Both the position numbers and the translations under genes were made by a program. A stretch of 20,000 bases of DNA from Euglena gracilis (Eukaryota). The stretch covers positions 42,206,247 to 42,226,246 of the forward strand of contig CP154954.1 in the NCBI GenBank assembly GCA_039621445.1. The letters are read 5' to 3'. Within the stretch, counting starts at the first letter, position 1; every line of letters starts with the position of its first letter. Under the pieces are notes generated by a model. The model was given only the letters and a program-made list of their open reading frames with translations, was not told the DNA's origin and made no database searches. Positions 931-14,700 of this stretch are shown here, piece after piece.

Positions 931-3900
931 CGCCCGCCACCACTGCCCCCCCCCCCAAAGAAAGACAACCTAAAATTGTCGGAGTTCTGAAAGGGATTGG
1001 GGTTAGGGTTTGACGAATAGGATGAAATGGACCAGAATTCATGCCTAAAGTCGGACCACTGTTACACTTAACTGCCTAATTTGGCCTAAATCTTTTCCCT
1101 GATCCTTTTCCCAACGCCAACCATAACCCTGACCCTATCCCTGCGTGTTTGAAAAGTGGACCCCCATTTAATTTGAATCCCATCCATAAAAGGGGTTATT
1201 GTTATTTTTTATTTGTGCGTTTTATAATTTGGGAATTCATCCCCCGCCAGTCGGGCAGATGCTGATGAGAGAGAGATGCTCTTTCAGCTTGAAAGAGAGC
1301 ACATACCATACAGGTGTGGGTGTTTTTATTCCAAGAGGATTGTTTGGGTACAAACAACAGTTGTACCCACGACACCAGCAGAATATCACATGAGAAATGA
1401 ATCAACGGCCAACAAAAATAATTACATGCATATCATATGTGTAGATGGCAGCTCCCGCATATATATCTACATATAACATGCATAATCCTTTAATCCCATA
1501 ATCCATTAATCCATGCATGATCCGATAATCCTTTAATATATAACTGCACATATCCTTTATAAATGAATTCACCAATCGTTCGTTTTTTTTATGTATGTTT
1601 TTCCCCATATTTTTTCTTCCCATGATTTTTGCACCGACTGCAACAGCCCCATGCCCATTGTTGCTGTGCTGTGGCCCGGAGCACCCCCCCCCCCCCCCGA
1701 CCCCCACTGGGCAGGGCGGCGCCCGCAAAGTCTGCGGTGCGGGGAGGGGCTTGACGCCGCCGCCCCCATCCTCCGTGCCCTGCAGGGGGAGTCGGGCGTC
1801 ACGCTGGGCGACGACTACCGCCCCGTCCTGGTCATCTCGGCGTACACGTACCTCCCGGCCCTCCAGGCGGCGCTGGAGCTGAAGGTCGCCCACGGGGCTG
1901 CACGTTGGCTCTGCAACAGGTGGGAAGCACTCCCCAGCCTCCAGCACTGTGACAATGCACACTACACGAGGTCTAAAGCACACCCCCAGGGTTGACGTTT
2001 TCTTTAAAAAAAAACACAAAAAAACACGTTTTCTAAAATCAACTAAATTTTTCCCCTTTTTTTTAAAACTGCAAAATGCACATTTTTGGTTCAAAAACAC
2101 CTTAGGCGGTCGACTTCGCACTTAAGCTGTTCAGAAGTTCTTTGCGCAATCGCACCAGTTCAGAAAATAATTTTTGTGCTCCATCCTTCGCTAGCAAAAC
2201 GAGGTTCATCCCCTTTTTGTGCTTTCGACTGGGCTGACTCCGGCTGGTTTTTAAGTGGCCTCTGGGAGATGCCCAGCCCCAACCCCCCCCCCCTTCTTTG
2301 GCTAGTGGCACGTTTTTGGCGATCGACAGAGACGATGTCTAGCAACCTGAGAATGGGGGAAAACACACAAAAACACTTTTTCCCCTTGGTGCTGGCACAA
2401 AAGCCTTGTGGAAAAAAGGCCCCCTTTTCGTTTAAATCGGCGAAAACCCCGTGAAAGAGGTTTCTGAAAAGCTTCTTTCCCCCCATTTCCTCCCAATAGA
2501 AGAGCGGGGCCGCTGTAAGCGCAGGGTCCAAATAAGGCGCTCCCCCGCGACGGTCCGCTACAAGTCTCAAGTCCGCTACAAGCCCCCCATTTTGATGGAA
2601 TTTCTAAAGGAAATCAACAAAAATCACGCGGCTAGGGTCCAAATGAAAACGTAACCCCCCGCTGTAAGTGCGCCAGCGCTTGTGCTAGGGGGGGGGTCGA
2701 CTTTGGGATCAGGGGATGTGGACCAGTGAAGAAAAGCCACGGAGCACCAGTTTGGGAAGGTTGAGAGGTCTGGAATGTGGGGAGAGAGTTATTGATGTTT
2801 TCAGGGTGTCGGCAGGCGTGAGTGGTGAGGGCACCGGTTACAGCCCACAACCGGCCAACGGGGAAGGGCTCTGGGAGCCAGGGTTGGAAGATGTGCTAAA
2901 GGACGTTTTCCCTGGTTTTAGAGGATGGAAGTTGGCGCCGCGTCTTTATTGTGAAGTGGAAGGGGACATTGCCACTGAATGGGATGTTGAAACAATGGAA
3001 GCTCTTGCACAATGCGCAAAAGAGTTGGTGTGCCGAGTTGTTTGTTTCAAACTGAGTCATGCACCCCCTGATTTTCATGGGGAAATGAAGCTGCTCGGAA
3101 AGGCCGACAGGATCCACTGCTACAGATGCCTTGGGGACAGGCGTGGCAAAACACAGTAGGAGATAAATTCTGTCAATCTGTCAACAGTATCAGAAGCCCT
3201 TGTTTTCACCGATATGTAGAGTCCATAGAGTAAAGACTTTTTTTTTCAGCACCCCGTGGGAATGGGAAGTGAAGAATTGTATTTATTTTTGAAACTCAGT
3301 TGCGCAATTGCGCAAGTGTTTGAAATTTACACGCCTTTGCGCAATTACGCAAGCAGCTTTTTGGTTTTTGTTTGCGCGGTTGTGCAACGAAAGGGCGATA
3401 GGACTCTGGACATCCCGAACCCGTCATTTTTGTCCCAAACGGCAGCCATTCTGGCAGCAGTTGTTGCCAGGCAGATACTCTTCGGAGCTTGTGAACTTGT
3501 CGATCAGCTCCCAGGTTCTTATCTGTGAAATTTGACTGCGTCTGAATGCGGCTCTCCCAAAAGGGCGAAAGGGGGAAAAGATACGGAGGAAAAAATGATG
3601 GGAAAAAGAACGATGGGAATAATTGGGGCACCCAATCATTTATGTTTCCCATCATTTTGCCTGGACCGTAAAATTAGGATTTCCAACATCAGATTAGGAT
3701 TTTGGCTCCAAAAATTAGGAATATCTGGTGGTTTTCCAAAGAAACCTTTTAAGTCCACTTCACCCGAAATGGATTTGGCCAAGTCCACTTTACCCCAAAA
3801 TGGACTTGGCCAAGTCCACCTTACCCCAAATGGACTTGGCCAACTCCATTTTACCCCAAAAGGACATTGCCAAGTCCACTTTACCTCAAATGGACTTGGC

Positions 3901-4932
3901 CAAATCCACTTTACCGCAAATGGACTTGGCCAAGTCCACTTTTCCCCAAACGGACAAAATATTTTCTTAGAACCCTAGATGACAAATTAAAACAACAACA
4001 ACAATAGTTATTTTTTGAAAAATAACGTTTTTTTTAGTAAAAAAACTATCAACTTTGGCAAAAGGCCAAGCCATTTGCAAAAGAAATGCTGACAAACTGG
4101 ACCAGACAGATGGCTGATTGTTGGTCATCATTCTCAATTTTTTTTCAAGAAAATCGCCCAGTCAAATTGAAGGCACAGTGACCTTGCAAGAGGAAGCGAA
4201 GCACTGCTTGGTCACTTGGCGTGAGCGATCGCAAGCAACCCCTGTACTCGTGGTCACGCTGCCCAAAGAAATGCTCCAACAGGGTGCCTTTCTGTTTGCT
4301 CTCCAAACCAGGACGTCCTCGGCGATCCCCGCCGCCCTGTGTGGGGGATGCCTCCGAGGCCGAACAGCCCTCCATCACCGTGGCCAGCCGCCCAGGCTGG
4401 GGTGCCCCCCCAGTTGCACTGAGGCTTCTTGTCCGTTTATGACTTAACTTCGCTTCTGGCCCAGTTTGTGTGGTGTGTCTGGGGTGCCCCCCCCCCCTCC
4501 AGCAGGACGGCTGTGGTGGGTGGGGCGGGGGGGGGGCACCTCGTGAGACAGGGCTGGGCCGGGCCACCCCCCCCCGCCGCCCACCCCGGCGCTGCGGGCC
4601 GCCTGGCGCTGCTCTGTGTGGAGGCGGCGGCGTGCTGCCTGGTCGCCCTCGCCTTCATCATCAAGGCCATTGTGGCGTGGATCGAGAAGGTGTGGGCGGA
4701 GGGCCAGCGCACGGTGCGGGACCAGCGCCGAGGCCGGCCCCCGCTTTTTTTTTTTTTCTTTTTTTTTTTTATTTTTTTGTTTTTTTTTCCTTTTTTTTTT
4801 TGCCTTTTTTTTCTTGTTTATTTTTTTTGTTTAATTAGTTTTTTGGTTTTTTTTTTTCTTTTTTTTTTTTTTTTCTTTCTTTTTTTTTTTTTATTTTTCT
4901 TTTTTTTTTGTTTTCTTTTGTCTTTTTTTTTT

Positions 4933-4983
<51 letters not shown>

Positions 4984-5655
4984 TTTTTCTTTTTTTTTTT
5001 TTTTTTTGCCTTGCCCCTTGCCCTGGGCCCGTGGACACCGCCGGGTGGGGGACTGGGTGGGGGGAGGGCAGCCCCTGTCTCAGCATCATTTTCCCCTTTG
5101 GGGGGCGCTTTGGGGGGGCGTTGGGGCCGCTGTTTCCGCCGCCCGTGTCCCCCTGGGGGCGGCGGGGGCGTTGTGGGGGGCGGCCTCCCGCCGGCAGCAG
5201 CTGCTGACCTTCCTGGACCGGATGTACCCGGCGTCCGTTGGCCAGCCTGCCGGTCACAAGCCAGCCCTCCTCAGCCGCAAAATCCACCCCTACCCCTTTC
5301 CCCAGGCCAATGATCAAACCTGTGTTTGCAGGAAGAGGATGATCAACGGATGAAGTGTGCCAAAAATGTCCTACAGCAAACGGGCAGCACCGCACCGCAC
5401 AACAGCGTCGCCCACACTGCCCCCGTGACCGGCCGCCTGCCGTTGCCCGGGACCTCATCCTGACGCGGCCGCGGTGCGGTGGTATGATCAGCTTCATGGT
5501 GGCGGTGCCCCACGCCTCCGTCGTGTTCGCGGACATCCACGGCTTCACCAGCACCTGCCACCGCCTCACCGCGCAGCAGCTGATGGCCGGGGCTGCCCCA
5601 GTTCCAATGCGCTTTTCGTTCTCTGGCCTCCATCTGGCCCAAAGCCTTCCTGATG

Positions 5656-5721
<66 letters not shown>

Positions 5722-8013
5722 AAGAATGGTTCATGCGTGCGGGTGTGTGTGCACTTGTCCTTCATGTGCATGCAGGTTGACCAAAGATTCTCAAACAAAA
5801 TTTTTGGTAAGGACACAAATTTTGCTGCATTTTTTTTAACTGTAATTTCCAACCGGTTTCCCAACCAGGCGTCCGTTCAAGGGCTCCCAGCCAGCACCTG
5901 CCCGTGGGTTGGGCCAGATCCCGAGGCAGACCTTCCTCGGGTACACGTTCAGTGTGATGGACGTCGTGGCCAGCCGGGCCGGGATGTGCCGCGTGAAGCT
6001 GGTCGGGGACTGCTACATGGCGGTGGCTGGGCTGCCGGGCAGCGCTGACACGCCGTGCCGCAGCGCCGTCTTCTTCGCCACGTGGTGTGCCCAGGTCTTC
6101 AGCGACCGGCCTGCCCGCTGTGCATGAACCCGAGCTGAGTCGTGTGGGGAATCTCACTGTCTTGACGCCAAACCCCACTGGTGTTTGTTTTCACCTGGCC
6201 CCTCCCCATGCCTGACAGGAATGGTGGCATGGTTGGTGTGATTGATCCCCGGGCCACGCATAATCCCTCTTTGATTTGACAAATGGATGATTGGAAACGA
6301 AGGAGGGGTGCCCGCCTGGGCAGGCACTCCAAGGCACTCCTGATCCGACCTCCCCCCCGTGGGGGGTAGCGCACACGGCCAAAAGTGCCCTAGCACAGAC
6401 CCCAGCGCCGAAGGCGCAGGGGAGCCAAGAATGGCCTATTTTCAAAAGAATGTGCCTGGGCACATGCCGAAATCAGACCCCATTAGTTGCACTAAGGCTT
6501 CTTGTCTGTTTATGGCTGGCGCCAACTCCGCTTCTGGCCCAGTTTGCTGTGTAGTGGAGAAAGTTGTCAGACAGTCATGGTCCTCGCCGAAGTTTCCTGG
6601 GAGGGGCAAAGAAAGGGAACATGACAGCTTGACATCGACCACCCCAGCACACCTTTTTGCCAGGAAGAGGTTCAAAGTATCATGCAAGCGTCATTCTTCC
6701 TAGCACAGGTATTTGCTTTTTGTGGTGTGTTCATTTCATTTTTTTTTGGTCATCAGTTTAGCTGTCTCAAAGCGTGGTGAGGGGGGTCGTCAGAAGGCAA
6801 TGTGCAACAGCAGTCTTAGCGAGCCTTTTTGCTTTGTTCTGTCTCTTCCCTGTTTCGGGGGGGGGGGGTGGGCATGGAAGGCCATTGCGGCACAGGGGGG
6901 CAGCGGGCGCTACACCCACCCGCTGCAGAACCAGGCCACCATGGACGGATTGGCCGCCTTGGCTTGCAACAAGGGGCCCTGGCCGGACCCGTGGCGCACC
7001 GATTCCACCACCACCAGTGAGATCGGGGCCGGGCTCTATGGCTTCGCGTATGTGTGTACGTGCGTTCGTGCGTGTGTCCATTTGTGCATTTGTGCATTTG
7101 TGCATTTGTGCGGTGCGGTGCGTGTTTGCGTGTGTGTGTTTGCGTGTGTGTGCGTGTGCGCGCGCGCGTGTGTGTGTGTGTGTGTGTGCATGTGTGTTCC
7201 GTGTGTGCCCCAAGTGATCGGTGTGTTTGCCATTAAGAAAGGCTTGCGCCGCTGCCTTGATGCCTGCCTCCGCCCTCAGTGGCGCTGGGCGAAGTGAAGT
7301 GCCGTCCCTGGTGGAACCCGCAGGCCATGACGCTGGCCGGCCACGGCACGCCGTGCGTCCTGCGGTACGGCATCGCCACAGGCCGCGTCACGGCGGGCGT
7401 CCTCCCCGGCAACACCCCGCCCGCCCCGGCGCTGCTCCCCCCCCTACGACCCACCCCCCTGGTCGGAGGAGAGATTATCATTGGAGGGGACAGTCCTGTG
7501 TTTCTGCATTCTTGTGGACACTGCCGCTGCTGTTTTCGCCCCTGGGTGTTGCTAACCGTCAAAAGCCAAGAGCAGGCATCAACTCAAACCCGCCAATGCA
7601 GCCAAGTCTGCCCCGAAGATGTTCAGCGGGTAGTTTTGTTGCCCCAAAGTGGTTGACTTTTGCTTTCCACCGCGGCGCTGCTTTGCCGCTGTTGTGTGAT
7701 GCCGGGGGTTCCGCCTGCCTGGCCTCTTCCAACCCCCCCCCCCCCATGCCTCGTCCCTCCGGCCACGCGGGGGCCGCCGGGATCCTGGACGTGTGGGGCA
7801 AGGTGGTCACCTTCGCCAACCAGATGGAGCGCCTCAGCCAGCCGGGGCGGGTCCTCCTCTGCTCCCAGACGTACAAGTCTGTCACGCCCAGGGCGGCGGG
7901 CAGCCTGCCCGCCCGGCAATGACGTACTCCTTTAGGGGGCGGCGACCTCTGGAAGGGGGGACAGGTGTCCTTGCCACCAGGTAAAGGTCAGACAGGGAGA
8001 CAGACACATACAC

Positions 8014-8055
<42 letters not shown>

Positions 8056-11000
8056 GGACTTGCATGCATTGATGCATGCGTGCATATATGTATGTATGCA
8101 TGCATGATGCACACATCATTCATGCATACCAGGGCGTTGCTTACCTCCCCCCCCTTGTCCAACGACTGGCCTTGTCCCCCGGTCAGTAGCGATCTTTTTC
8201 CAGGTAATCTTTTTTTCAGACGTTCGCGTTCTTTTTCTTACAACTTTCATGGCAGATTTTGTACCGAGTTAGCCAGCACATACGGGAGCCTATGTGTTGG
8301 TGCCTTGTTGATTGCCGCACGTTTCTCCCTTTTTTTCATCATGAATCTGAGAGTTGTGGCCATGTCAGGCAAAGGAAACTTTTTTTCTTCACCTTGGGGC
8401 AAAGCAGGAGGAAAAAATTTTGACCCGGTCTTGTCTAACGGCCACCCCCCCGGTCAGTAGCGAAAATAGCGACCCCCCCCCCCCACGGTCAGTAGCCATG
8501 TTCAGCGGTCGTTGGACAAGGGGGGGGGGGGTAAGAAAAATTTGATCCCCCCAGGGGGGACCCTGCCAGCCAAGCCTTTTTCCAGCTGGCAGCCCTTTTC
8601 CAGCCCCGGACCCCCTCCCCCCATCAACGAGATTGATTTATTTCCGGCCGCCCGAAGGGTGGCTAGACGGCAACAGATTTTTCACTTCCAGGAGGTACAG
8701 AAATGGGCCAAAAATGGGCCAAAAATGGCTTAGAAAAGGGTTGGCAAGGGCAAGGAAATCGTTGTTTTTTTTTAATTGGCAGTTTTTTGGACATTTTTGT
8801 GACTTCATTTTTTTGAACCCGGTTCGACCCCAAGTCGGGCCCAGCTCCAGCCTGGGACACCTATGGGGCGGGGAGGGAGGGGGTCAGCCAGCAGCCTTTT
8901 TCCAGCCAGCTCACGTTTTCCAGCCCCTGAGCTGGACCCCCCGGGAGTCCTAAGCAACTCCCTGATGCATACATACAGACATGCATTCATACATACAGAA
9001 AGAGAAATGGACAGACAGACAGACGGACGGACGGACGGACAGATGGACATACACAGGGATAAAAGTGAATTTATTCACCTTATCTATTCTCCTCTGAGTT
9101 GCATGTCAAACAAAACAAACACATGAAAGCTTTGCTTTTGCAGTTTGATTTTTTTCTTCTGCTTTTTTAAAAAAGGAGGAACCAATTGTTGTTTTTTTTG
9201 CCCCGGTTTGGCCCTGCGGGGTCCTGGAACGGCGCCGGATCTGGGCAAACTCGGTCGACTGGGGGAGATTCGGCACTTAATTAGAAGGATAGGGCTAGGG
9301 TTGGGATTGGCGCGCCGAAAATTGGCACTTTTGAGGGACCCAGTTGGGCCGGACAGTGGGTTCCGTTTTGGGAAGATCCTGAATCGCCCGTTTTTCCCAA
9401 AAATGCCCGAATTCGACCCAAATTCCCCCAAAATTCGCCCGCTGTGCAGCCGAACTCCTCCCTGAATTCCGAAACGAGGGGGCCTCCGGGAATCCGGCCG
9501 CGACCCTAACCCCATCCCTAAAAATAGCCCGACTTTCGCCTGAGGGTCGGACGGGGGGATGCTACATGGACCACTCCCCTGGAGCTACTATTTGGCCCGC
9601 GGGCCAAGTTGTAGCTTGCTGCGATTTCTTCCATCAACTTTTTGCAGCTGTCTTCATTTTTGGCTGCCGAGAGCTTTCGCCCCTCCTCGTCCCCATGGGG
9701 GTGGGGACCCGCTCTCGGCTTCCAAAAAGTCTATGCGGCCGAGCGAGAGGCCCCGGTGCCCGGCCTCCCCGAAGCCCGGACCACATCCTGGGCCGCAACC
9801 TTGATGCCTCCCGGGGACCCCCTCCCCCCGGCCCTCCCCGGGGTGGGGCCCTCCGCCCTGGCCCCGGCGGACGACGTCGCCAGCCACGCCTTCACGTTCG
9901 AGGACGGCCCGCCGCTGCCAGCCCGCCCCTCGCCCAGCGCCGCCGCCACCAGCCACTTCGTCCGCTCCGCCCGCGGCCTCCCGCCCTGCCTCGTGCCTGG
10001 GGGGGCCCCGGCCGACGTCCCCGACACGGGGGGGGGGGCGGGGGGAGGGGGCAGCTGTTGATTGCAAAGGCAGTGGTGGAGCGCAGAGCTTGCGTTGCAT
10101 GTCTGCCTGAACACTCACCTGCACCACAGGCACAGTTTTCTTTCCGAGCTCTATAGCCCTGATGTTGTTGCCAGAAACGCGAGATAAAAATTCAAACTCA
10201 ACCATCCAAAAGGAGAGGTCAAATCCTTTTCTGGAGTGCAAGGGAACTCACTGTGCCAGCAACACTGTTAGAGTGAAAATCAGATCATTTATTTCAAATC
10301 AGATCTAAAATCAGATCCAGAAATGAAAAATTCCTGGAATTATTATGAATTTTACCCGGTGATTATGGTTTTTACCTGGTGAGACTTATTTGAGCCGAGA
10401 ATCTATGGATTTCGCATGACCTATTTGTTTTTGGGGGCTCATGCCAGCTTCCATCTCTTATTGGCCACACTAATCACGAACTGTACAGAGAGTTAATTTC
10501 ATTCTTTGTATCAAGCAATTTCACTGAAATCAAACACCCGTGGATGGGTCGCGGTCGGGCTGTACAGGATTCCCCGAAACCCAATGGGTGGTCGGTGGAG
10601 GGGGTCCAACCCCCCCCCCACCCCTTCCGTATTTCTGGTGGGATTATTCGGCCAAAGTTTTCTTTACGCGACTGCCATGGTGGGTGGGGGTCGACCCCTC
10701 CCTGGGTGGGGTGCCAACCCCCCCACCAGGCCTTCCCGTACAGCCCTGGGGTGGATGGATATGAAAATAATGTGTGTGTGTGTGTATGCGTGTGTGTGCA
10801 CATGCGTGCGTGCGTGCATGTGTGGGTGGGTGGGTGGATGTGTAGGAGGGTGGGTGGGTTGGTGTTGAGATGTGGGGGTGTTGGCAGGATGGCAGTGATC
10901 TTTGCCCCCCCATGCCGCGTCGCCGGGCGCCTCGCCGGTGGAAGCGGATCGTTGGTTTGGCTGTCGGACGAACCCCGGTTGGCCACTCCCCCCCCCCCGC

Positions 11001-11758
11001 TTCTGTGAGGGCCGCCCCACCGACGGCGGAGCTGGGGCTCTCCCCCGTCGCATACGACGCTGCCGGTCCTCCGCCCCCGGACCCCACAACCTCTGCAGAC
11101 CCCAGCTCCCCAGCCAGGCAGGGACTGCTGTGCGGGCTGCCCCCCTCCCATGGAGCGCACTGCTGCGCGCTGTTTAGGCCAGAGTTCCGAGGTTCAGGGG
11201 CACAGGGCAAGAACCAGGGAGGCCCAGGAATGTGTCGAACGGGGGCCTTTTTTTGCATCAATTCCCAACTGCTCAACCTTTCATTGCGTTTTCGACAACG
11301 TTCAAATGGATATTTTCCCTCTGCATTGCATGGGTCAAAGCTGCTGATGAAGGATCCTTTGACGCTTTTCGGCAGGGGTCTCGCAGGGCAGGGTCGAAAT
11401 AATTTGGGATTTGCTCAAAATGAGGACATTGCACACTCGGGGCGATTATGAGGCAGTTACACCATCGGCAGTGATACAGTGAGGCAGTTCTTGCGCAGGA
11501 GAGTGCGTGGCCGTTCCCATCAGCTGAAAGGTATTTTGGAATCCATGATTCTGGAGGGGGCACAGCAGTACTTCCTGCCTTGTCTGCCCGTGCTTGTTTT
11601 GCTTGCGTGCACAGTTCAGTGCACACACATAACGTTCGGTGTGTTTTCTTTGTTTTTTTTTTTGGTTTTCCATCCACTGCAGGCAGGGACCCCCACAGGT
11701 CCCTGACGCCGACGACGCACCGTTGGTCCTCCTCACGGAGGCTTCCTCTGGTACTTGA
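823..11758 (+). CDS. 5'-partial multi-exon gene: receptor-type class III adenylyl/guanylyl cyclase-like protein (Cache-like domain, TM helix, cyclase domain)
   Basis: Predicted exons ~823-~930, ~1721-1887, 4347-4389, 4601-4726, 5193-5239, 5445-5584, 5929-6107, 6909-7016, 7280-7418, 7781-7885, 9866-9994, 11025-11115, 11711-11758 join into one stop-free frame. Motifs occur in the expected order: GDDYRPVLVISAY..LKV/DASEAEQP, a hydrophobic helix, FLDRMYPASVA, VVFADIHGFT, VKLVGDCYMAVAG, LRYGIATG, LDVWG..ME, PGRVLLC. Confidence 0.88.
927..1724 (+). other. Nonconventional intron 1 (exact ends ambiguous: 927-1724, 929-1720 or 932-1720 all keep frame)
   Basis: CCGCCC (930-935) pairs with GGGCGG (1714-1719). 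No AG at any of these candidate 3' ends. Confidence 0.6.
1721..1887 (+). CDS. Exon B, Cache-like segment (..AAAPILRALQGESGVTLGDDYRPVLVISAYTYLPALQAALELKV); start within 1721-1725
   Basis: RAL.G.SG....DYR...VI.AY........L.LKV resembles the C-terminal half of dCache-type domains (recognised by eye). High GC3. Confidence 0.8.
2896..3225 (-). pseudogene. Possible decayed non-LTR retrotransposon AP-endonuclease fragment
   Basis: Minus strand reads WTLHIGENKGF*YC*QIDRIYLL..VGLSEQLHFP, resembling the (W)T..RIDRI..SDHxP C-terminal motifs. Recognised by eye only. Confidence 0.3.
3751..3955. repeat. 30-bp minisatellite, about 7 units, palindromic
   Basis: Unit AAGTCCACTTTACCCCAAATGGACTTGGCC starting at 3751, 3781, 3812, 3842, 3872, 3902 and 3932. 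Confidence 0.95.
4347..4389 (+). CDS. Exon C, 43 nt (DASEAEQPSITVAS)
   Basis: Joining to exon B gives LKVDASEAEQP, matching the KxDxxExxxP end of Cache domains. The preceding intron's ends pair. Confidence 0.75.
4390..4600 (+). other. Nonconventional intron 3 (211 nt)
   Basis: C|G..C|G junctions. CAG-GCTGGGGTG pairs with CACCCCGGC-g-CTG, with the register shifted by one (+4/-7). Confidence 0.7.
4412..4478. repeat. Short dispersed repeat, copy 1, flanked by a 15-bp direct repeat
   Basis: AGTTGCACT.AGGCTTCTTGTC.GTTTATG..CGCTTCTGGCCCAGTTTG recurs at 6485-6546. CTGGGGTGCCCCCCC occurs at 4397-4411 and 4479-4493. Confidence 0.8.
4601..4726 (+). CDS. Exon D, transmembrane helix plus linker (RLALLCVEAAACCLVALAFIIKAIVAWIEKVWAEGQRTVRDQ)
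   Basis: Hydrophobic stretch of ~20 aa followed by a charged helix, within ORF 4429..5313. Confidence 0.8.
4727..5192 (+). other. Nonconventional intron 4 (466 nt)
   Basis: gcc-GAGGCCG pairs with CGGCCTC-ccgcc; C|G..C|G junctions; +4/-6 register. Confidence 0.75.
4745..5007. repeat. ~260-nt interrupted poly(T) tract in intron 4
   Basis: Directly visible. Confidence 0.95.
5193..5239 (+). CDS. Exon E (RQQLLTFLDRMYPASV)
   Basis: Resembles the LL..MLP..VA segment that precedes class III cyclase domains. Both flanking introns show +4/-6 pairing. Confidence 0.82.
5240..5444 (+). other. Nonconventional intron 5 (205 nt), textbook CAG/CTG type
   Basis: T|ggcCAG..CTGccgtt|G, plus a perfect 9-bp pair GCCGGTCAC/GTGACCGGC. 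Confidence 0.88.
5445..5584 (+). CDS. Exon F, start of cyclase domain (ARDLIL..ASVVFADIHGFTSTCHRLTAQQL)
   Basis: FADIxGFT motif with the first metal-binding Asp at codon 5532. Confidence 0.92.
5585..5928 (+). other. Nonconventional intron 6 (344 nt); sliding 1 nt gives GC..AG ends
   Basis: ggc-CGGGG pairs with TCCCG-aggca (+4/-6). The join gives QQLMTFLG. Confidence 0.78.
5658..5720. repeat. (TG)n microsatellite
   Basis: Directly visible. Degenerate TG tracts also occur at ~7050-7207 and ~10771-10825. Confidence 0.97.
5929..6107 (+). CDS. Exon G (TFLGYTFSVMDVVA..RVKLVGDCYMAVAGLP..CAQVFSD)
   Basis: KxxGDCYM motif: Lys codon 5996, second metal-binding Asp codon 6008. Confidence 0.92.
6108..6908 (+). 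other. Nonconventional intron 7 (801 nt), reversed CTG/CAG stem
   Basis: C|ggcCTGCCCgCTGTGC pairs with GCACAG..GGGCAGcgggc|G. Confidence 0.78.
6485..6546. repeat. Short dispersed repeat, copy 2
   Basis: Closely similar to 4412-4468 apart from a short central indel; same left boundary. Confidence 0.8.
6909..7016 (+). CDS. Exon H, insertion within the cyclase domain (RYTHPLQNQATMDGLAALACNKGPWPDPWRTDSTTT)
   Basis: Upstream intron ends pair in the +4/-6 register. Downstream GTGAGA donor is phase-compatible with the CAG acceptor ending at 7279. Confidence 0.72.
7017..7279 (+). other. Conventional GT-AG intron 8 (263 nt)
   Basis: GTGAGA donor, pyrimidine-rich CAG acceptor, phase 1 on both sides. 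Confidence 0.75.
7280..7418 (+). CDS. Exon I (MALGEVK..PCVLRYGIATGRVTAGVLPGNT)
   Basis: RxGIxTGxVxAGV cyclase motif. Confidence 0.9.
7419..7780 (+). other. Nonconventional intron 9 (362 nt)
   Basis: GCCCCgGCG (7423-7431) pairs with CGCgGGGGC (7766-7774), i.e. +5/-7 on the same register. It restores motif spacing. Confidence 0.78.
7781..7885 (+). CDS. Exon J (PILDVWGKVVTFANQMERLSQPGRVLLCSQTYKSV)
   Basis: DVWG..V..A..ME....PGRV motif. The join gives GVLPGNTPILDVWG, the same spacing as canonical GVIGxxKPxYDIWG. Confidence 0.92.
8015..8055. repeat. (GACA)n microsatellite; related GACA/GACG run at ~9010-9045
   Basis: Directly visible on both sides of the 8130-8964 insertion. Confidence 0.93.
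8130..8964. mobile_element. Non-autonomous hAT-like TIR element (MITE), 835 bp, inside intron 10
   Basis: TIRs CAGGGCGTTGCTTA / TAAGCAACTCCCTG (13 of 14 match). Perfect 8-bp TSD ATGCATAC at 8122-8129 and 8965-8972. No transposase ORF. Confidence 0.88.
9866..9994 (+). CDS. Exon K (ADDVASHAFTFEDGPPLPARPSPSAAATSHFVRSARGLPPCL)
   Basis: FxFE..TxxFV-like end of the cyclase domain. Both flanking introns pair in the +4/-6 register and keep the frame. Confidence 0.78.
9995..11024 (+). other. Nonconventional intron 11 (1030 nt)
   Basis: T|gccTGGGGGGGCCC pairs with GGGCCGCCCCAccgac|G (10 of 11 positions). Confidence 0.7.
10555..10748. mobile_element. Possible degenerate MITE in intron 11
   Basis: GGGCTGTACAGGA at the left is nearly complementary to TCCCGTACAGCCCTG at the right. 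No TSD found. Confidence 0.4.
11025..11115 (+). CDS. Exon L (AELGLSPVAYDAAGPPPPDPTTSADPSSPA)
   Basis: Defined by stems of both flanking introns and by frame continuity; no protein motif. Confidence 0.62.
11116..11710 (+). other. Nonconventional intron 12 (595 nt)
   Basis: C|aggCAGGGACtgCTGTG pairs with CACAG-GTCCCTGacgcc|G. Confidence 0.62.
11711..11758 (+). CDS. Probable last exon M (DDAPLVLLTEASSGT*)
   Basis: Follows a GTCCCTG-acgcc intron end complementary to CAGGGAC at 11119. Phase 0, ending at TGA 11756-11758. Confidence 0.55.
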   Translation, partial: DDAPLVLLTEASSGT

Positions 11759-14700
11759 CCAGCGTGTCAAATAGCCACCCACCAGTCGGCCGGGCGTGTT
11801 TTCTGACACAGGTGAGAGAGTCAGGGTGGAGAGCCTGGCCTTTCCCCTCAGGCCACAGTGTCTCTCAGGCTTGCTCACCCAGGAGCCCCAACCCACCATC
11901 ATTTCCGGGCTGTGGCGTCCCTCAGAGAGCGCCCGGAGCCCACCCTTCCCTCCTCCCCACGTTTCCACCGCCTGATCCCTTTCCTCCTCTGGGTCTGGAT
12001 GGGCCGAGGGAAGCCCCCTTTGCCTCGCAACGCATCCTGCATGACGTAGCACCTTCGAACCAGGTCTTCCCCACCTGCCAGCTTTTTGTTATTCCGGCGG
12101 GGTGTTTCCTGGCTTTCCATGTCTGGCTGATGGAGGGTGCTTGAAGACACGTTATCGGAGGTGACATTTCCTTTGAAGGCAGCAGCCCATATGCCAGTGT
12201 GCTGTGGTATTTTGAAGGCTCCAGCTCGCTCCAGGGAAACACCTTAATTGGTTCAGCTTGACAGTTTATTTGGGAAAATTGAAACGCAGCTTTTTTAAAA
12301 AAAAAAAAAGTGTTTAAGGGGTCAGGTGTTGGTTTTCACGTGATGGTGCGGCGTTGCTGGAGCGGGCAAATGCAGAGTGATGGAATGCGTCCTGGGGGGG
12401 GGGGGGGCGCAGCGCTCCTCCCGGCGCTCCTCCTGGAGCGGGGGGACAGATGGAGGCGGCGGGGGCAGCCCTGGGTGTCGGGGCCGCGGCCACTTTGTTT
12501 GCATCGCATGCAAACCCCCGCCACTGCCGGGCCCCTCGCCCCTTTCCCCTCCGTTAACCTTGGCCCGGCCCCCGTCCCGGCCTACCCCCCCCCCCCCCCC
12601 CCCCCTAAACCCCAAATATAAATCCCAAATTTGGATCCCAAACTAAGATAAATAAGAATAAAAGGCAACATACAAACCTCCCTGATTTGGCGACCAAAAA
12701 TAATCCCCTCTTGGAAGCGCCGATAGCTGGATCGCGAACGTTGAGGGGTGGGATGTCACGGGAGGTTGGTCTGTGGGAGGTGGGTGCCGCGGCCGGCCGT
12801 GGCCCAACCACGGCGAATTTTGGCTTTCAAAATTTTCTTTTGGTTAGGCCAAAAGAAAAGAGGAAACCCAACGTCGAGAGACAGCAAAATTCCTGAAAAT
12901 GTATGATTTTGTTACAGTTTTTAGCAATTCATTGGACTTTACATTTTTTGCTCCAAAAATGGTGACCAACTAGAATTTTGCTTGAAAAAATGGTGAATTT
13001 GGGCGAGATGAGGGCAAATTTGGAAACATCATGCTTTCAGCCACAGAGAACTCCTGGGGGGTTTCGGTGCCAAGCGCCGGAAAACTTTTTTTTGGAATTG
13101 CCTTGGAATTCCGATTCGGGAAATCCCCGGGGGGGGACTGAGCCCGCGAAGCCCGTCACGCAGTCAAACGCTCTGCTCCCCCGAGGATGCGGCCTGCCCC
13201 CGGCACTGCCTCCCCCGCATCGCCCTCTGTAGAGTACGCACAGAGCGCCCGACCACTTGTCACGCGCTCCAACACTTTGCCTTCTCACTGGTGTTTTTTT
13301 GGCCCCACCTGCCGCCGCCGCGCGATGGCATCCGGCCGGGAGCCAGGCCTGTGGCGGGACGACACTGTGGATGTGCAATTTTCCCGGATTGTGTTGCACA
13401 GCAGGGGTTGGTTTGAAGCCAGAGGGAACCCTACCCACCAGGGGGTCCAGCCATCCAGCACTTTTTCCCCGGCCCGCACCTCCCAGATGGGCTGCGGAGG
13501 TGAAAAATGCCCAAAATAGGGCATTTTTTGGGTGGTTTTTGGTTTTTCACCTCTAAATTTGGTTGAAAAAACGGCAACTCAGTTGGATTTGGTCTTTTCC
13601 TTTTTTTTTGTACCTGCCGAGTCCAGCTCCTAGCCCGGTCCCCCCCGAACCCCCACCCCTTTGGGGGGGGGGGGGCAGCAAGCACCTTTTTTTCCAGCCA
13701 GCACCTCTTTCCAGCTGTCCCGCAGGACCCTGGAACGTCAGTAACTGGAGGGGCTGATGTGGTTTGACACACACAAATGCGGAAATCCTTTCCTCCATTT
13801 GTTCCCGCCCTAATCACTTTCTCTGGCAAAATGAAAATGCCTTCAAGGCCGGGCTGAACAGCTGGCTGTGCTGGCAGGTGAGTGAATCCATAGAAACAGT
13901 CCAATTGCTCCCTGAAAGGAGTGCCCCGAGGAAGTGGAATGGCTTGCATCATACTGGTGGGTGTCGGGATAATCTGTGGGTTTGCTGGTGCCGGGAACGA
14001 TAGTTTCCAGGGCAGGACCCTGACAGGCTTTTGGAAACGACAAGCCAAGCCAAGGCCAAGGCCAGCCAAGGCCACCGCCATACTCCCCCCCCCCTGGTCC
14101 CCGTCCTGCTTACATGCAAACTTGGCCCCCCTGAAGCTGGCCTTTGGCCTTCTGCATATGGCGACCAAAATTTTTAACGTGCAAATTTAGCCCCCAAAGA
14201 TTGGCCCCCAAGCATCCCGGGGGGGGGGGGAGGGTGCCAAAGGCACTCTCGTTTCCCGGAATGGAAACGGCGTGATCCCGTCTTTTCCCGACCTGCCGAC
14301 GATGAAGTGGACCTGCCCTCGTCACCCACGCTCGCTGTGATGGGGGACGCTGACCCCCTGTTGTGTCGATTCAGGTCACCCCGTCCCCCGGCCCCCGCAG
14401 ACGGCTTTCTTCCCTTCCCTTCCCCCCTCTCCCTCCGCCCAGCACCGATGCTTTTCCCATATACCAGCCTGGCTCCCTACCCAGGCTGCGCCAACCCCCC
14501 CTCCCTCCCCTCCCTCCTCCCCCAGGGAATTTGTTTCACTGGAGATCACAGGCAGCATTTTCTTGTTTCCCCAGCCAGCTGCTCTCGCTGGGCTGCAACC
14601 CCCCAGGTCAACAGAAATAATGTTGCCCCCTTCGCTTGATGGAAGTACAGGTGCGCTTATAGCGGACCACGGCCTCCGGCGGCAGGGGGGGGCATTTCTA

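Follow-up and report, generated by a model that had tools for sequence, protein, structure and literature searches.

A predicted divergent receptor-type adenylyl cyclase of Euglena gracilis with TxxxQ in place of NxxxR

Can a class III cyclase domain that keeps its metal- and base-binding residues, and carries other residues at the Asn and Arg of the NxxxR motif, work alone, as one half of a mixed dimer, or not at all? The question is raised by a gene in a 20,000 nucleotide (nt) stretch of Euglena gracilis DNA, here called the window (assembly GCA_039621445.1, contig CP154954.1, positions 42,206,247 to 42,226,246, forward strand), in which a cyclase domain had been predicted from the DNA alone and described as a half-enzyme like C1 of mammalian adenylyl cyclases or the alpha subunit of soluble guanylyl cyclase (sGC). 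According to the available text of PMC6027212 and PMC12264004, class III domains form head-to-tail dimers, in which a site combines the Asp pair of one protomer with the base residues and NxxxR of the other. The answer tentatively preferred here is that the product would be a C1-like, or more exactly chytrid NeoR-like, subunit dependent on a canonical paralogue; residue comparison and functional analogy make this quite possible rather than probable.

Active-site residues in a spliced transcript

The window DNA is eukaryotic, with GC-rich coding pieces lying among microsatellites and T-rich tracts and without a long open reading frame (ORF). Logan contigs of three runs and the raw reads of one RNA-seq run were aligned to window positions 5010-12000. 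A spliced contig was present in each of the three runs (1603, 1687 and 2142 nt), giving the exon order ...-4725, 5192-5234, 5440-5584, 5929-6106, 6908-7020, 7278-7418, 7781-7884, 9865-9994, 11025-11112, 11708-11786 and 11940/1 onward, and the reading frame is unbroken over at least 10 RNA-supported exons. Raw reads span 7 of the 8 listed joints between 5234 and 11708 (9, 8, 3, 0, 3, 9, 2 and 1 reads). The gene is thereby shown to be transcribed and spliced through nonconventional introns. The exons of the cyclase domain are as follows.

5440-5584, + strand: cyclase exon with the first metal Asp (FADIHGFT, Asp 5532-5534); RNA, Pfam profile positions 8-32, family profile.
5929-6106, + strand: cyclase exon that encodes, within VKLVGDCYM, the Lys specifying the base and the second metal Asp (6008-6010); joints seen in 3 contigs and crossed by 8 raw reads, Pfam 24 bits, family profile E 1.8e-22, PDB alignment in agreement.
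6908-7020, + strand: exon for part of the long alpha3-beta4 loop insert of the cyclase domain; joint 6106 to 6908 in 3 contigs and 3 raw reads, joint 7020 to 7278 in 3 contigs and 0 raw reads.
7278-7418, + strand: cyclase exon with LRYGIATGRVTAGVLPGNT, in which the structural Arg is kept and Asn stands at the phosphate-binding Lys/Arg position (the equivalent of the C1 Arg that we take to be numbered Arg484); RNA, alignments, family profile.
7781-7884, + strand: cyclase exon with the adenine-specifying Asp (LDVWG) and TxxxQ instead of NxxxR; joints 7418 to 7781 and 7884 to 9865 in 3 contigs, with 3 and 9 raw reads.
9865-9994, + strand: exon for the last domain strands (FTFEDG...A-RPSP, against C-KGFG in the family) and the start of the C-terminal tail; RNA, translation, alignment.

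The original prediction named Asp 5532, Asp 6008, the RxG Arg, Thr 7809 and Gln 7821, and its coordinates prove exact in the frame supported by the transcripts, which places the Asp of FADIHG at 5532-5534, the Asp of VGDCYM at 6008-6010, the Arg of LRYGIATG at 7363-7365, and the Thr and Gln of VTFANQME at 7809-7811 and 7821-7823. No other letters occur in the eight listed pieces of the X3 contig, exon 7781-7884 included, so the Thr and Gln codons are present in RNA, and none of the differences listed for 4 runs falls in that exon. Neither Asn nor Arg was found at the two positions in the RNA contigs or the PDB alignments, both of which show Thr and Gln. The RNA corrects the predicted gene model by adding a missed exon (6908-7020) and three further coding exons, and shows that the TGA at 7920-7922, an apparent stop, is intronic, the transcript leaving the exon at 7884. 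The real stop is TGA 11756-11758, 89 residues past the Thr/Gln exon, and the protein does end soon after the domain, as had been expected.

Pfam Guanylate_cyc (PF00211) matches 3 of the 12 plus-strand ORF pieces scanned, in collinear order: 5343-5777 (profile positions 8-32, 12.5 bits), 5846-6124 (35-69, 24.0 bits) and 7218-7919 (123-156, 20.4 bits). The cut-off of 21.9 bits is passed alone only by the middle one. A profile built from 61 relatives matches five exons in order (E 1.3e-4 to 1.8e-22), and the spliced product is 39.7% identical over 335 residues to a Euglena transcript product, EG_transcript_764 (E 5.7e-69). The five collinear matches and this pairwise match together exclude chance.

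In the PDB alignments, LDVWGKVVTFANQME lies opposite FDVWSNDVTLANHME of AC5 C1 and DIWGNTVNVASRMD of AC5 C2, so that the Asn and Arg of NxxxR are matched by Thr and Gln, respectively. Similarly, VKLVGDCYMAVAGLP lies opposite IKILGDCYYCVSGLP of C1 and IKTIGSTYMAASGL of C2, the Lys of VKLVGD pairs with the C2 Lys of KIKTIG, and FADIHGFTS is opposite FADIEGFTS. LRYGIATGRVTAGV is aligned with LRVGLATGPVVAGV, and the RxG Arg matches LRVGLATG of a mycobacterial cyclase. As judged from these alignments, both metal Asp residues and the adenylyl-type Lys/Asp pair are kept and NxxxR is replaced by TxxxQ. This C1-type pattern had been read correctly from the DNA, and it holds in the family census given below as well as in the PDB alignments; the sGC-alpha motif cited with it was not seen among the PDB alignments listed. 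At the Arg484-equivalent position the window protein has Asn (GVLPGNTP, compared with GVLQGKTP in the family and GVLGLRKW in AC5 C1). The KGKG motif is absent, as predicted: C-KGFG of the family reads A-RPSP, with Arg at the Lys position, in a stretch where the alignment is less secure, exon 9865-9994 being undetected by the family profile. An alternative exon with a canonical NxxxR was sought with the family profile and not found, the only other match to that region being 8838-8870 at E 170.

A divergent pair within a euglenid receptor cyclase family

When the 59-residue exon was compared by phmmer with 1.84 billion representative proteins, 61 matches were obtained. The first is an unspliced genomic near-copy (P0001), and the best after it (P0002) was recognised by a word-index search as the EukProt entry EG_transcript_764 of Euglena gracilis, which is a transcriptome entry and hence expressed. 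The same exon found only P0001, an unspliced genomic ORF with 96% identity, in a collection of 5.8 billion proteins, and none of the public protein collections searched yielded the spliced protein in its exact form. With the domain of EG_transcript_764 as the query only 4 matches were obtained, and with a canonical family member 99 proteins; the best 56 of these 99 are mostly euglenid transcriptome entries (EG_transcript_ and GGOE01 series, Eutreptiella) or unnamed, and are 730-1284 residues long. An expanded "NCIII" cyclase family of Euglena gracilis is described in the available text of Ebenezer et al. 2019 (PMC6366073).

Members of this family share one transmembrane helix, an MYP..VA transducer helix, an alpha3-beta4 insert of 60-120 residues and a conserved tail. 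The long insert occurs in all members aligned, and alignments with 30 and then 61 relatives find the features of the family in the window protein. EG_transcript_764 scores 91 bits against PF00211 over profile positions 10-182. In each of the 7 euglenid-family relatives scanned, Pfam finds either one cyclase stretch or two belonging to the same domain, and no ectodomain recognised by Pfam was found in the members scanned. Residues were counted in relatives gathered at E <=1e-20 (72 in all), of which 61 with full domain coverage were kept and 11 partial ones dropped.

Both metal Asp, base Lys and adenine Asp: 61/61 relatives; kept in the window protein; kept in EG_transcript_764.
Asn of NxxxR: 60/61 relatives; Thr in the window protein; Val in EG_transcript_764.
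Arg of NxxxR: 61/61 relatives; Gln in the window protein; Arg in EG_transcript_764.
Lys/Arg at the C1 Arg484 equivalent: 59/61 relatives; Asn in the window protein; Leu in EG_transcript_764.
Lys of KGxG: 54/61 relatives (4 rows gapped); Arg in the window protein; Arg in EG_transcript_764.

The sole relative among the 61 without the Asn is EG_transcript_764. Conservation at 61/61, 60/61 and 59/61 indicates that the losses in the window protein are specific and not part of a general decay. In the tree the window protein lies inside the family as the sister of EG_transcript_764 (SH-aLRT 99). The stem of the pair measures 2.0 changes per site and its two tips 1.2 and 1.66, where the median is 0.18, and long-branch artefacts are possible in this clade. 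The two proteins have the motifs KLVGD, PWWN.Q and PG..P in common, and the binding residues were kept through very fast evolution in both lineages. From the residues present in each, the loss of the Asn and of the Lys/Arg looks old and common to both sisters, and that of the Arg looks private to the window gene.

Alignment and tree place the window protein, as a divergent paralogue, among the euglenid receptor-type class III adenylyl cyclases that have a single pass and a single domain. It resembles the NCIII family in the same order from the membrane inward, in the insert after CAQ.FSDR..H, in the tail motif and in the membrane-proximal ectodomain module, and differs in having LDVWGKVVTFANQME where the family has FDIWGxTVNLASRME, and Asn for the preceding Lys/Arg. 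Descent from a C1 or sGC-alpha domain is contradicted by this placement, and the likeness to those domains is accordingly convergent. No description of euglenid receptor cyclases without NxxxR was found in the literature, subscription journals being outside coverage.

A partner domain further upstream in the same protein had also been proposed. The region instead contains the following exons.

838-930, + strand: putative ectodomain exon for the first half of a repeat module next to the membrane, ...FRYLTSLRFSSQC; tblastn of relatives only, best E 0.008-0.039, borders approximate.
1735-1887, + strand: putative ectodomain exon, second half of the module, ...LGDDYRPVLVISAYTYLP...; tblastn, many relatives, best E 1.5e-9, borders approximate.
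4585-4725, + strand: exon that encodes the one transmembrane helix and the first part of the juxtamembrane helix; 3' end RNA-supported, 5' end approximate.
5192-5234, + strand: exon with a cyclase transducer-type helix (QQLLTFLDRMYPA); joint 5234 to 5440 in 3 contigs and 9 raw reads.

The transmembrane exon is matched by the family profile at 4594-4728 (E 1.3e-4), and its end at 4725 follows from the loose-end consensus before 5192 (X2, X3 and 8 raw reads of X21), which equals window 4696-4725. In the relatives the ectodomain consists of about 700 residues of repeated modules, the membrane-proximal one directly preceding the transmembrane helix; one module was found in the window, at about 838-930 and 1735-1887, and the intron code permits several in-frame pairs of borders for its exons. 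Any further modules would lie beyond the window. Pfam gave no match to the upstream ORFs 654-1010, 1567-1992 and 2689-3156. No second cyclase domain was found in the window with the family profile in six frames or with tblastn of relatives. With a transmembrane helix and ectodomain exons in this position, and single-domain relatives, an upstream partner is not borne out, and only the "separate subunit" and "regulatory" options of the prediction remain. The peptide GAWKIKTIG at the window edge (5-31, + strand), which is like YKVKTIGD, was considered as an exon of a second domain and rejected (i-E 85, no further domain pieces after it); it is probably a chance or stray fragment. The search proposed earlier for complementary Asp-less paralogues was carried through for the relatives, where 0 of 61 were found in a sample gathered with a canonical query and not from the whole proteome. 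Any canonical paralogue could be the partner.

Introns, transcript variants and repeats

The remaining exons lie downstream of the domain.

11025-11112, + strand: C-terminal tail exon (AELGLSPVAYDAA, in agreement with the family tail motif); joint 9994 to 11025 in 3 contigs and 2 raw reads.
11708-11786, + strand: last coding exon with the stop TGA 11756-11758, then 3' untranslated region (UTR); joint 11112 to 11708 in 2 contigs and 1 raw read.
11941-12000, + strand: 3' UTR exon after a UTR intron, continuing past 12000; joints 11786 to 11940/11941, the X3 contig having 447 nt beyond 11786.

A code for nonconventional introns in Euglena, 5'-N3CDG ... CH'GN5-6|R, is given in the accessible part of PMC12501133. 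At an allowed register, 7 of the 10 RNA-defined introns fit this code, and 3 (4725 to 5192, 7418 to 7781 and 9994 to 11025) do not. None of the 10 has GT..AG ends as placed by alignment; among the alternative allowed registers, one of 5234 to 5440 begins with GT and one of 5584 to 5929 reads GC..AG. The 3' UTR intron 11787-11940 is nonconventional, with acceptor registers 11940 and 11941 in different contigs. Since the introns do not follow GT-AG, one exon was missed when the ORFs were read, and for annotation this means that ORF reading fails in the Euglena genome, where an apparent stop can be intronic. The 5' ends of all three contigs lie 717 nt upstream of 5440 and may represent either the mRNA end or a shared assembly break.

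Transcript variants in the coding exons are synonymous in 8 of the 12 listed cases and conservative replacements in 4, which speaks for purifying selection, and the gene seems to be under such selection. A second transcribed version of the gene was seen in exon 5929-6106, where 5-6 differences (Val to Ile, Thr to Ala, the rest synonymous), all matching P0001, are present in the X1 and X2 contigs and in some of the X21 reads; this version is an allele or a recent copy. In intron 9995-11024, contigs cover 10082-10554 at a depth of 3-7 and 8 raw reads have a loose end at 10028, which point to unspliced RNA or another transcript at 10028-10554.

Several introns contain repeats. Two copies of a short interspersed element (85% alike) lie at 4405-4444 and 6478-6517, in different introns or flanks. 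The bin surrounding the second copy shows an RNA word depth of thousands (6505 in X1) and numerous loose ends, as for a high-copy element present in many transcripts. Within the 1980 nt intron 7885-9864, the segment 7982-9069 is flanked by arms of (CAGA/GACA)n and TGCA-rich sequence (direct family D3; inverted pair 8072-8101/8965-8994). Between the arms the RNA depth is 80-750 and many contig joints are rearranged, and the segment is probably a mobile repeat that lies nested within the intron. A 263 nt tract at 4745-5007, 80% T, occupies the greater part of the intron that follows the transmembrane exon, and the long intron upstream of the transmembrane exon includes a tandem array at 3751-3955 (6.8 copies of a 30 nt unit).

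Candidate roles of the protein

Three known systems bear on the role of the protein. In the chytrid heterodimeric rhodopsin-guanylyl cyclases, the NxxxR positions of NeoR are occupied by T455 and K459, its metal Asp and base residues remain, and it is inactive alone; with RGC1 or RGC2 it is active via a single catalytic site, the other site being regulatory (PMC12264004, available text). Both NeoR and the window protein are single-domain membrane receptor cyclases that have lost NxxxR, with Thr replacing the Asn in each, and have retained the metal Asp and the residues that recognise the base; NeoR supplies the Asp side of the one active site. NeoR differs in its rhodopsin sensor, guanylyl specificity and fungal lineage, in having Lys at the Arg position where the window protein has Gln, and in that its partner genes adjoin it, whereas none is present in the window. 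The likeness is best regarded as a functional analogy only.

AC5 C1 (PDB 8sl3/1azs) shares both metal Asp residues and VT.AN.ME in place of VN.ASRM., and the GDCYM exon scores 16.2 bits against C1 and 3.1 bits against C2. However, C1 is not a relative by descent, and the window protein has no partner domain in the same chain, has lost the Arg484 equivalent and keeps the adenine-specifying Asp, which is a C2-side residue; the base-specifying Lys is present in C1 too. The C-terminal half of EG_transcript_764 scores 26.9 bits against C2 and 12.8 bits against C1 of AC5. The trypanosomatid ESAG4/GRESAG4 cyclases, as described in the available text of PMC6027212, are likewise euglenozoan, with a large ectodomain, one transmembrane helix, one cyclase domain that needs dimerisation, and an alpha3-beta4 insert (the 36-residue Delta-subdomain of trypanosomes), and differ in having Venus-flytrap ectodomains where the euglenid family has repeat modules without a Pfam match. 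Homology of the insert to the Delta-subdomain is not claimed, because no trypanosomal cyclase is among the PDB matches of EG_transcript_764 at E <=1e-5.

In the proposed scheme, the protein would run from an ectodomain repeat module through one transmembrane helix and a transducer helix to a cyclase domain with a long alpha3-beta4 insert and a short tail. A homodimer would have two sites without NxxxR, in which ATP and metal would be bound and catalysis would be poor or none. In a heterodimer with a canonical paralogue, the competent site would be formed by the Asp pair of the window protein and the Lys, Asp, Asn, Arg and Lys of the partner, and would lack only the Arg484-equivalent residue. 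The second site, with the Asp pair of the partner and the Lys, Asp, Thr and Gln of the window protein, would be non-catalytic and may bind nucleotide and regulate. Retention of the transducer helix and the C-terminal tail motif supports a role as a subunit, and NeoR and the ESAG4 strategy in trypanosomes, described below, are precedents for it.

Several observations weigh against this scheme. No partner was identified, and NeoR partner genes are clustered, yet there is no second cyclase gene in the window; nor do the 61 relatives, a canonical-query sample and not the proteome, include a dedicated paralogue that lacks the Asp residues and has NxxxR. Loss of the Arg484 equivalent, to Asn, could cripple even the "good" heterodimer site, and the long branches of the clade are compatible with relaxed constraint. 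NeoR back-mutated to NxxxR stays inactive, according to the available text of PMC12264004, so the motif alone does not decide activity. The contigs may also stop short of the true N-terminus.

The main rival to the dependent subunit is a pseudo-cyclase receptor, which would keep the fold, and perhaps ATP and metal binding, and take part in no catalytic site. It would serve as a scaffold or a nucleotide sensor, or would damp canonical receptor cyclases by holding them in dimers of poor activity. The joint loss of the Asn, the Arg and the Arg484-equivalent Lys/Arg, the loss of KGxG and the very long branches are all as such a protein would have them. Trypanosomes provide a precedent, in that an overexpressed ESAG4 copy with one metal Asp and the transition-state Arg replaced was used as a dominant-negative strategy, with a transient growth phenotype (PMC6027212, available text, which does not mention mixed dimers). 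However, the metal Asp residues and Lys/Asp are kept in both sisters despite about 60% divergence, and a pure scaffold would not need them; moreover, the Asn/Arg side of a partner would still face an intact Asp pair, so that one site is expected to be competent. This reading is considered rather unlikely.

A weak but real homodimeric adenylyl cyclase, in which the absence of NxxxR would be compensated elsewhere, for example by the Arg that replaces the KGxG Lys, is improbable. All substrate- and metal-binding residues are present, and the gene is expressed and seemingly under purifying selection, but the presence of the Asn in 60/61 and the Arg in 61/61 relatives implies that the family depends on both. 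Yan et al. 1997 reportedly found that mutating the matching Asn and Arg of mammalian C2 lowers turnover by one to two orders of magnitude, which also counts against it, as does NeoR, which has a similar loss and is inactive alone (PMC12264004, available text). An expressed, functionless and decaying paralogue of a very large gene family, which the long terminal branch, the loss of several catalytic residues and the absence of the exact spliced protein from the collections searched would suit, is very improbable, given a frame intact over at least 10 RNA-supported exons, synonymous changes in 8 of the 12 listed variants, conserved binding residues, transducer helix and tail motif, and a sister gene that has a partly shared pattern and is also expressed.

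For the dependent subunit, a wider form of the proposal may be considered, in which the window gene and EG_transcript_764 would make up a small Euglena clade of NeoR-like non-catalytic receptor-cyclase subunits that pair with the many canonical receptor cyclases into asymmetric dimers, with one active and one nucleotide-binding regulatory site; this is doubtful. If the contig 5' end is the true mRNA end, the window copy would be without most of the ectodomain and would be a ligand-blind modulator of ligand-sensing partners. Euglena has a very large receptor-cyclase family. If the subunit reading is true, published counts of active euglenid cyclases would be too high, and at least some Euglena receptor cyclases would signal through mixed dimers in which one site is catalytic and the other regulatory, an arrangement reached independently by animals (transmembrane adenylyl cyclases and sGC) and chytrid fungi (NeoR/RGC).

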